Source: a virus. From it: a stretch of DNA of 64,000 bases. The position numbers and the translations under genes are program-made. The notes under the pieces were generated by a model. The model saw only the letters and a list, made by a program, of their open reading frames with translations. It ran no database searches and was not told the DNA's origin. Shown piece after piece: positions 62,345 through 63,298 of this stretch. The DNA lies in IMG/VR virus record IMGVR_UViG_3300027969_000074, positions 25,058 to 89,057 of that record. The stretch is one strand, 5' to 3'. Within the stretch, counting starts at the first letter, position 1; the number at the start of each line of letters is the position of its first letter.

Positions 62345-63298
62345 TTATCTATTTTCTTTTGCGTAAATTATTGCATCTACGTACTTAGAGGAAGCAGTAT
62401 TAGGTTTAATATTTGAAAGATCTGCATTAAACGGGCTTGATTCTCGATAATCTGCTTTATAAAAAAGATCAGGTTTTCTATCGTCAGTTACTCCAGCATT
62501 ATGCATAATTGGGCATCGATTATAATCCTCGATTGAGGAAGTTCCCCAACTAAAATTTAATTCAGGTGTAATTATCGTTTGTGCACCAATTTTCCATCCA
62601 CCCCAAAGAACTGCCCACATATCTGCACACCATTTTTGCACAGGGTTATAGGTTTTTAACTCTTCCGGCGTTAGGGTTTCGCGTTCTTGATTTTCGCGGT
62701 CTGCCATGTACTTATACATAGTTAATGAATCTGAAATTACCTCTTTCCAAAAGTCAGAAGTAACACCTTTCATTAAATATTGAGCACCGCCTGAACCTTC
62801 TTGATTTTTTTCTACAATTTCAGGAGAAATTTTTGTTAAACTACAAAGGTCAATGAATAAGTCTTCAGATTTACTTTTAATATAGTTTGCGCCGATATAA
62901 GAAACTGTATCACTTACATACCAATATAAATTATCATGCATTGAGTCAAAATCTGGAAGTTCCCTAAAGATAATATCTGAATCATGATAAAAAACAGTTT
63001 CACCACGTAATTCTGGATATTTTAGCCAGTGTTGTTCAAGAATATCTGGTCTAAGAATAGGAATGTATCCAAAATTTTGAGTTATTCTCTTTTTATAGAA
63101 AAAGAATCTAACCATTGGATATTTTTTAGCTAGGGCAAGGCCTTCTTGGCTAGGCTCGTCATTATATGCAAATAGAATTTCTATCCAATTTGGATTAATT
63201 CCATTTTTCATAAAATTATGAATTACAACCTCAACTTGCCAATGGAAGTATTGATGGTCAGGCTGGGCTGATATAAAAATAGTCTTCTTTGTTAACAT
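62345..63298 (-). CDS. GT-A glycosyltransferase resembling plant peptidyl-serine galactosyltransferase SGT1 (GT96) / HPAT (GT95)
   Basis: YFHWQVEVVIHNF, GYIPILRP, VFYHDSDIIFR, GGAQY, WCADMWAVLWG and IMHNAG occur in the order of the conserved SGT1/HPAT blocks. Confidence 0.7.
   Translation of the reverse strand: MLTKKTIFISAQPDHQYFHWQVEVVIHNFMKNGINPNWIEILFAYNDEPSQEGLALAKKYPMVRFFFYKKRITQNFGYIPILRPDILEQHWLKYPELRGETVFYHDSDIIFRELPDFDSMHDNLYWYVSDTVSYIGANYIKSKSEDLFIDLCSLTKISPEIVEKNQEGSGGAQYLMKGVTSDFWKEVISDSLTMYKYMADRENQERETLTPEELKTYNPVQKWCADMWAVLWGGWKIGAQTIITPELNFSWGTSSIEDYNRCPIMHNAGVTDDRKPDLFYKADYRESSPFNADLSNIKPNTASSKYVDAIIYAKENR

Follow-up and report, generated by a model that had tools for sequence, protein, structure and literature searches.

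A soluble phage glycosyltransferase paired with poly-threonine tracts and distantly related to the plant SGT1 and HPAT enzymes

The plant and green-algal glycosyltransferases SGT1 (SERGT1, a peptidyl-serine alpha-galactosyltransferase; CAZy family GT96) and HPAT1-3 (hydroxyproline O-arabinosyltransferases; GT95), both in Pfam PF23452, act on side-chain hydroxyls of repetitive extended peptides and put the first sugar directly on the side chain (PMC4908140, PMC8012813). Their substrates are extensin-type peptides, which receive galactose on Ser and arabinofuranose on hydroxyproline. A novel fold was predicted for GT96 in 2021 (PMC8476585). Among phages, the nearest described biology is the glycosylation of capsid and tail tube in mycobacteriophages (PMC12363180): in Che8, Corndog and Myrna, phage-encoded transferases are reported to glycosylate capsid and tail-tube subunits (PMC12363180, PMC13313380). 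Here we describe a 317-residue glycosyltransferase encoded by a viral contig of 89 kb (IMG/VR record IMGVR_UViG_3300027969_000074). The stretch analysed, hereafter the window, comprises the last 64 kb of this contig (64,000 nucleotides, positions 25,058 to 89,057). We think it likely that the enzyme O-glycosylates poly-threonine (poly-Thr) stretches of phage proteins, probably as the one that primes the glycan. As judged by profile comparison, its family is truly, though distantly, related to SGT1/HPAT, without being a member by the Pfam threshold.

The open reading frame (ORF) lies exactly where a preliminary description of this stretch, made from the letters alone, had placed it (Table 1), and its product is a soluble GT-A glycosyltransferase. 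The AlphaFold2 (AF2) model has a predicted local distance difference test score (pLDDT) of 97.4, and in it the DxD motif, D106-x-D108, comes after a beta strand formed by residues 101-105. Both aspartates are invariant in alignments of 49 and 73 family sequences; H266 and K281, which fall within an H-x-x-G...K stretch, are invariant in the family alignments as well. GT8 enzymes bind metal and diphosphate through their DxD and C-terminal His/Lys motifs, and by analogy with GT-A/GT8 enzymes generally D106-x-D108, H266 and K281 would have the same roles here. The mechanism is probably of the retaining type and metal-dependent. No hydrophobic or membrane segment was found in the protein, the highest Kyte-Doolittle mean over 19 residues being 0.70, and the N-terminus is not signal-like, which agrees with the cytoplasmic location proposed earlier. 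PHROG 4417, annotated as "unknown function," matches over the full length (E 5.7e-65; residues 8-312 on profile positions 3-290 of 293), while no Pfam family, PF23452 included, matches even at E≤10. In structure comparison the nearest solved folds include GlyE, LgtC and XXYLT1; a profile search of solved structures returned only spurious matches to TAL-effector repeats. Enzymes of the GT8/GT24 type (glycogenin, LgtC, the Skp1 alpha-galactosyltransferase, the catalytic domain of UGGT, and GlyE) share with this protein the GT-A fold, the DxD and the C-terminal His/Lys, but sequence identity is 6-12%, TM-scores are only about 0.45-0.5, and Pfam Glyco_transf_8 (PF01501) matches neither this protein nor any of 122 relatives at E≤1-10.

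The consistent neighbor of the transferase is a run of threonines. At 63 of 80 IMG/VR loci carrying the family, an ORF contains a run of at least six, and in 58 of these 63 the nearest run lies upstream on the same strand, usually 0.06-1.6 kb away. The 80 loci have almost no runs of S, G, P, A, E, K, N, Q or D, and the V runs seen at 55 of them are the antisense reading of the Thr runs. The remaining loci include three with interrupted Thr-rich tracts and three that have no upstream sequence.

In the 89-kb contig, the only ORF with runs of at least five threonines is the gene directly upstream of the transferase, truncated here by the contig end. As the preliminary description had it, the transferase gene sits between this mucin-like gene, 39 nt away, and the first Gly-Thr-Ser collagen-like gene, 70 nt away. 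A full-length homologue of the mucin-like protein is encoded in a related contig (L006) whose transferase is 97% identical to that of the window; it has 1106 residues, about 30% of them Thr, and consists of small Cys-containing domains joined by (P/E/A)TTTTT linkers. The transferase follows within about 40 nt in all 14 relatives that have the complete mucin-like gene, and no mucin-like gene lacking it was found among these and nine broken contigs. Assemblies tend to break inside the poly-Thr gene: this is where the contig of the window stops, and the gene is likewise interrupted in 9 of 23 related contigs (L295-L311).

The association was also examined in the opposite direction, using 82 loci whose sole selection criterion was an in-frame run of at least ten threonines and, for comparison, 36 loci without an in-frame run. 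The transferase is present in 8 of the 82, always directly downstream, and in none of the 36; this reverse link, from poly-Thr to transferase, is weak. Downstream of other long poly-Thr tracts (L171-L288) come VanY and peptidoglycan-binding domains, in which case the tracts are likely endolysin linkers, and, once each, a GT60-like PF11397 protein and a GT2.

The family is found in 77 cultured phage records, from phages of Enterococcus, Lactobacillus, Lactococcus, Staphylococcus, Clostridium and Chryseobacterium, and in lytic and temperate phages alike the gene is embedded in structural modules. Directly upstream of the transferase, phiFL1A, 1706, phiCTP1, RQ1, 521B, LP65 and MA9V-3 encode Thr-rich ends or tracts. 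The run belongs to the major tail protein in Enterococcus phage phiFL1A and Lactococcus phage 1706, to the tail tube protein in phiCTP1, to an immunoglobulin (Ig)-domain protein in Lactobacillus phage 521B, to a structural protein in LP65 (identified by mass spectrometry, according to its record) and to a 428-residue protein in MA9V-3. Enterococcus phage VFW has Thr runs in the major tail protein, 2.6 kb downstream of the transferase, and in another protein encoded two genes upstream. In Staphylococcus phage RQ1 they occur in the major tail protein and in the ORF after it: the tail protein ends in STTTTTTTP and is followed by an overlapping ORF of 104 codons, almost wholly T7 repeats (L291:3223-3925), which may be an alternative, frameshifted extension of the tail protein.

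In the whole genome of phiFL1A, Thr runs occur in two ORFs only, gp45, which occupies the capsid position, and the major tail protein gp50, in both cases at the C-terminus. The capsid and tail homologues of Streptococcus phages phiGBSVK-C and Javan505 stop where the phiFL1A Thr tags begin, and the tail protein homologue of Lactobacillus phage phiJL-1 likewise ends at the start of the tag. A profile search found the transferase in phiFL1A and 1706, and none in the genomes of phiGBSVK-C, Javan505 and phiJL-1. Tags and transferase are thus jointly present in phiFL1A and jointly absent from these three phages. The phiFL1A tags sit on the same two kinds of protein, capsid (by position) and tail, that are reported as glycosylated in mycobacteriophages; the hosts differ, and the likeness is one of genomic pairing.

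We infer that during infection the cytoplasmic transferase would take a sugar from a nucleotide-sugar donor and, by a retaining mechanism, put it on Thr (and Ser) hydroxyls in the poly-Thr linkers of the protein encoded upstream, which would thereby gain a mucin-like sugar coat. In the small phages of the family the acceptors would be the C-terminal poly-Thr tags of the major capsid and tail-tube proteins. The enzyme would attach the first sugar, a priming role that is probable because small phages such as phiFL1A have no other glycosyltransferase annotated in the genome; in the window, the other transferases might then extend the glycan.

The relation to the plant enzymes begins with five blocks that the preliminary description had picked out. 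All are present, QYFHWQVEVVIHNF at residues 16-29, YIPILRP at 78-84, VFYHDSDIIFR at 101-111, WCADMWAVLWG at 223-233 and IMHNAG at 264-269, and they fall on columns that are invariant or nearly so in the family (W20, Q21, N28, F29, Y78, D106, D108, W223, M227, W228, H266, G269, F279 and K281). The SGT1 blocks set against them in that description proved accurate. Metagenome contigs were scanned with a tolerant back-translation of the first SGT1 block, NYFDWQTVGLMHSF, which occurs exactly in about 20 plant-like, intron-bearing loci. All the SGT1 blocks are found in an intronless contig (L421), whose 963-residue ORF (529-3417) has two tandem domains and a C-terminal hydrophobic segment, belongs to Pfam PF23452 HPAT (E 7.5e-40), and contains YPAINKP, I(V/L)ILDAD(M/Q), WISEMYGYSFG and (L/M)HYGL besides the first block. 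The plant-like SGT1-type genes (L421, L350-L419) have two tandem HPAT-type domains, 60% identical to each other in L421, and then a membrane segment; their genomic copies show the same four-exon pattern twice.

The counterparts in L421 and the window protein, YFDWQ/YFHWQ, YPAINKP/YIPILRP, LDAD/HDSD, WISEMYGYSFG/WCADMWAVLWG and HYGL/MHNAG, are collinear, following in both the order YFxWQ, Y..(I/N)(R/K)P, DxD, WxxEM(W/Y) and H(N/Y)(A/G), with D106 and D108 aligned to the ILDAD of the SGT1-type sequences. Spacings are similar too (phage/SGT1, in residues: W to Y 58/56, Y to DxD 28/27, DxD to W 117/95, W to H 43/41); H266 lies 43 residues past W223, compared to 41 from W196 to H237 in domain 2 of L421. 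Transfer to side-chain hydroxyls of repetitive extended peptides is known for the plant enzymes and would, by analogy, be shared by the phage enzyme. Unlike the plant enzymes, which are membrane-anchored and belong to the secretory pathway, the phage enzyme is soluble; it has one domain, whereas the SGT1-type sequences examined here have two in tandem; its likely acceptor is poly-Thr, that of the plant enzymes Ser-Hyp4 (Hyp, hydroxyproline); and it carries a longer helical insert between the DxD and WCADMW.

A profile comparison with the SGT1-type sequences, a kind of check suggested in the preliminary description, was run by hhalign. The phage family against a fragment-aware plant alignment gave P 7.6e-5 in local mode (probability 62%, 138 columns) and P 1.2e-4 in global mode (273 columns), whereas other GT-A domains gave P 0.05-0.46 and the reversed plant alignment P 0.43. 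Against the two full L421 domains only, the value was P 1.1e-3. With the block used for fishing left out, the middle segment alone gave P 3.7e-4, and the C-terminal part alone P 0.06, with WCADMW on WISEMY. A tool-made alignment of SGT1 exon fragments, of poor quality, reached P 0.0079, and a wider alignment of the phage family brought no better score (P 6.5e-4). These figures come with hhalign probabilities of 20-62% and a shallow plant profile (number of effective sequences, Neff, about 2).

Further searches bear on the same relation. A plant-only hidden Markov model (HMM) was run against the 2,344 ORFs of all fetched loci; the phage family, which makes up 7% of this set, fills all of the top 40 places (window protein, E 5.8e-4), and without the N-terminal block it still takes 20 of the top 40, where 7% would be expected. 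Among the 30 nearest named clusters in the ESM-Atlas, 22 have PF23452 in 10% or more of their members and 6 have DUF7164. PF23452 itself (gathering threshold 23.9 bits) gives weak matches in 2 of 122 family members, with E 0.23 and 0.019; it matches nothing anywhere in the contig, and in 5 jumbo relatives, 5 bacterial genomes, 401 Bacteroidota genomes and 5 cultured phage genomes it was not found on the transferase gene. Single-sequence and profile searches of a set of 5.8 billion proteins returned only close family members, none with a Pfam label, among the matches listed, and a representative-cluster search had no plant proteins in the best 150 listed. Scanning viral contigs with the pattern NYFDWQT gave chance matches only, and a relatives search with the SGT1 alignment found no viral relative. 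From these comparisons the family appears nearer to SGT1/HPAT than to the other GT-A families tested, GT8 not being among the profiles compared. The homology to GT95/GT96 claimed in the preliminary description therefore stands as a distant similarity (collinear motifs, hhalign P about 1e-4, 40 of 40 places in the plant HMM search) and not as membership, PF23452 giving no match.

DUF7164 (PF23741), found mainly in bacteria, is by profile comparison a second distant relative: hhalign gives P 6.6e-4 over 237 columns, with the DxD, the His and an F-x-G-K-Y motif aligned, although the window protein has no Pfam match to it. In Chitinophaga it is encoded next to a two-domain form of the transferase; DUF7164 proteins (Pfam E 3.9e-44), distant paralogues of the family, lie beside the two-domain transferase at L092:5093-5950, L107:9657-10514 and L133:9632-10534.

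Several observations weigh against O-glycosylation of poly-Thr by the family. Roughly 10 of the 80 viral loci lack a nearby Thr-rich tract even though upstream sequence is present, and most viral poly-Thr tracts have no transferase nearby (it is present in 6 of 43 loci with enough flank). The copies on Bacteroidota chromosomes are mostly two-domain proteins of 450-620 residues with a Thr/Ser run in only 14 of 76 loci; these loci also served as the background control for the Thr-run counts, and the scarcity of runs there means that poly-Thr is not the only possible acceptor or context. The contig represents about one third of the genome by the CheckV completeness estimate. The mucin-like protein has no PHROG or Pfam match, its N-terminal domain yields no confident fold (AF2 pLDDT 39), and it may not be part of the virion. 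Finally, no paper on the family was found, nor any member with a demonstrated glycan, modified residue or activity.

Other functions have to be set beside the proposed priming of poly-Thr. The enzyme could extend a glycan whose first sugar is put on Thr by a host or phage transferase, as with GlyE and other GT8 enzymes on serine-rich-repeat adhesins. The nearest solved folds do include extending enzymes (GlyE, LgtC and XXYLT1), and the window encodes further transferases that could prime, but we consider an extending role quite improbable: phiFL1A has no second annotated glycosyltransferase, the tight pairing is with a peptide tag and not with other transferases, and SGT1/HPAT, the nearest relatives by sequence, are themselves enzymes that join a first sugar directly to the side chain (PMC4908140, PMC8012813). 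Still less probable, and in our view very unlikely, is that the enzyme acts mainly on the Gly-Thr-Ser collagen-like fibers encoded downstream, much like the Thr O-glycosylation of the collagen-like BclA of Bacillus. In the window the gene directly precedes four Ser/Thr-rich collagen-like genes; a collagen-like ORF is present, however, in only 15 of the 80 transferase loci, 49 have Thr runs without one, and the cultured siphophages examined have no collagen-like gene beside the transferase. The consistent partner of the family is poly-threonine, not Gly-Thr-Ser fibers, and of the Ser/Thr acceptors suggested in the preliminary description for this locus, comparative genomics supports a link to the Thr-rich ones. 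A target other than protein is also conceivable, since phages are well known to encode transferases that modify O-antigen, teichoic acid or DNA, and the two-domain Bacteroidota forms mostly lack Thr runs; the Thr-rich neighbors of an enzyme modifying a host envelope polymer or phage DNA would then be incidental. This would leave unexplained both the positional pairing and the joint presence and absence of tags and enzyme, and it sits badly with a soluble protein that has no membrane partner and a gene that lies inside structural modules; we regard it as distinctly unlikely.

With respect to kinship, the similarity to SGT1/HPAT might reflect shared GT-A ancestry or short-motif convergence, and be no closer than that to GT8 or other GT-A families. 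The failure of PF23452 to match the window protein, the modest hhalign probabilities, the P value of the C-terminal half alone and the low Neff of the plant profile all point this way. Against it stand the five collinear motifs with their similar spacings, the much poorer values of the GT-A and reversed controls, the places taken by the family in the plant HMM search with and without the N-terminal motif, the PF23452-bearing ESM-Atlas clusters, and the lack of any family member matching Pfam GT8. On balance we find this explanation unlikely, though less so than the alternatives on function, and prefer a specific, distant kinship with the plant enzymes.

The transferase family comprises 846 clusters at 50% identity, and a word-indexed search of the 5.8-billion-protein set gives 2,116 to 3,743 family proteins. 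Many Bacteroidota chromosomes carry copies. Longer relatives combine the domain with GT2, GT32-like, GT6, GT11 and methyltransferase domains (32 fused forms, no plant SGT1 among them), and such fusions fit an enzyme that carries out a single step in making a glycan. In Chitinophaga, Pedobacter, Sphingobacterium, Mucilaginibacter and Elizabethkingia (L092-L166, e.g., L096, L110 and L145) it forms the N-terminal half of proteins of 450-710 residues, and the C-terminal part of this chromosomal form, about 250 residues, has no Pfam match. A few Bacteroidota loci (L128, L133, L162, L164 and L147) have an ORF of 62-89 residues with a T6-T13 run just upstream of the transferase; these small products could be glycosylated peptides.

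The source virus is a jumbo phage, because related genomes reach 270 kb, one of them rated complete. Its host probably belongs to the Bacteroidota, as the nearest binned copy of the transferase is labelled Bacteroidetes (85% identity) and the nearest cultured copy is that of Chryseobacterium phage MA9V-3 (41%). The features of the window are listed in Table 1.

Table 1. Features of the window discussed in the text
Feature	Position	Strand	Basis or remark
Transferase gene, 317 aa, soluble GT-A glycosyltransferase	62345..63298	(-)	PHROG 4417 family; distant relative of Pfam HPAT / CAZy GT95-GT96
DxD motif codons, D106-S107-D108	62975..62983	(-)	Presumed metal and nucleoside diphosphate (NDP)-sugar binding
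H266 codon (HNAG motif)	62501..62503	(-)	Presumed third metal ligand, as in GT8 enzymes
Poly-Thr mucin-like gene, 3' part, likely acceptor; truncated at contig end	63338..64000	(-)	Six T6-T7 runs
Spacer of 39 nt between poly-Thr gene and transferase gene; TATAAT 7 nt before ATG	63299..63337	(-)	Sequence
Collagen-like (Gly-Thr-Ser) tail-fiber-like protein, 542 aa, directly downstream; context	60646..62274	(-)	Pfam Collagen E 9e-14 and tail-fiber PHROGs
Three giant collagen-like Gly-X-Y proteins, 2654, 3192 and 2432 aa; context	35604..60639	(-)	ORFs
Sugar-chemistry cluster	27656..34589	(-)	Pfam and PHROG matches
GT4 and FkbM methyltransferase fusion, 936 aa	31779-34589	(-)	Pfam/PHROG matches
Two small methyltransferases	30434-31769	(-)	Pfam/PHROG matches
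924-aa protein, N-terminal S-adenosylmethionine (SAM) methyltransferase and weak GT9/TibC-like C-terminal part	27656-30430	(-)	Pfam/PHROG matches

The giant collagen-like proteins contain up to 446 consecutive G-X-Y triplets, with 26-35% Ser and 15-19% Thr. Their X-Y positions are mostly Thr-Ser or Ser-Asp, and the antisense strands of these genes yield long spurious ORFs of PEVP repeats. The genes of the sugar-chemistry cluster might serve in extension or methylation of the glycan, and may in this way be tied to the transferase. TibC-type enzymes heptosylate autotransporter proteins. The promoter that the preliminary description assigned to the transferase gene found no support: TATAAT is present before the gene with no -35 element and is not among the predictions of a promoter scan, and the motif AGTATAAT is not enriched (5 seen versus 3.6 expected). 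Copies of AGTATAAT lie 0-23 nt before three minus-strand gene starts (62273-62280, 63304-63311 and 7638-7645).

Two things are new in this work: real SGT1-type sequences were used to test the link to plants, and phiFL1A was compared with the Streptococcus phages. Through the homology to SGT1/HPAT, a GT-A model of very high confidence can be drawn on for relatives of GT95/GT96, a family without a solved structure, together with a soluble enzyme from a bacterial system with which to study how such transferases read repetitive peptides. A broader proposition, to which we give an even chance, is that poly-Thr tags of capsid, tail-tube and fiber-associated proteins bear mucin-like O-glycan coats in many tailed phages, including freshwater jumbo phages and cultured ones that infect Enterococcus, Lactococcus, Lactobacillus, Staphylococcus, Clostridium and Chryseobacterium, and that these coats are made with one dedicated, as yet unnamed priming transferase, whose family is also the closest non-eukaryotic relative of GT95/GT96. 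If this is true, a portable pair, a short Thr tail and one soluble transferase, would decorate capsids and tails in many phage lineages, including routinely grown phages of Enterococcus, Staphylococcus and dairy bacteria. A coat of this kind would matter for the stability of the phages, for how they adhere to mucus or cell surfaces and for their recognition by antibodies during phage therapy, as is reported for mycobacteriophages (PMC12363180). The pair might also become a tool for tagging proteins with sugars, and the family would offer a lead on where the plant GT95/GT96 enzymes came from.

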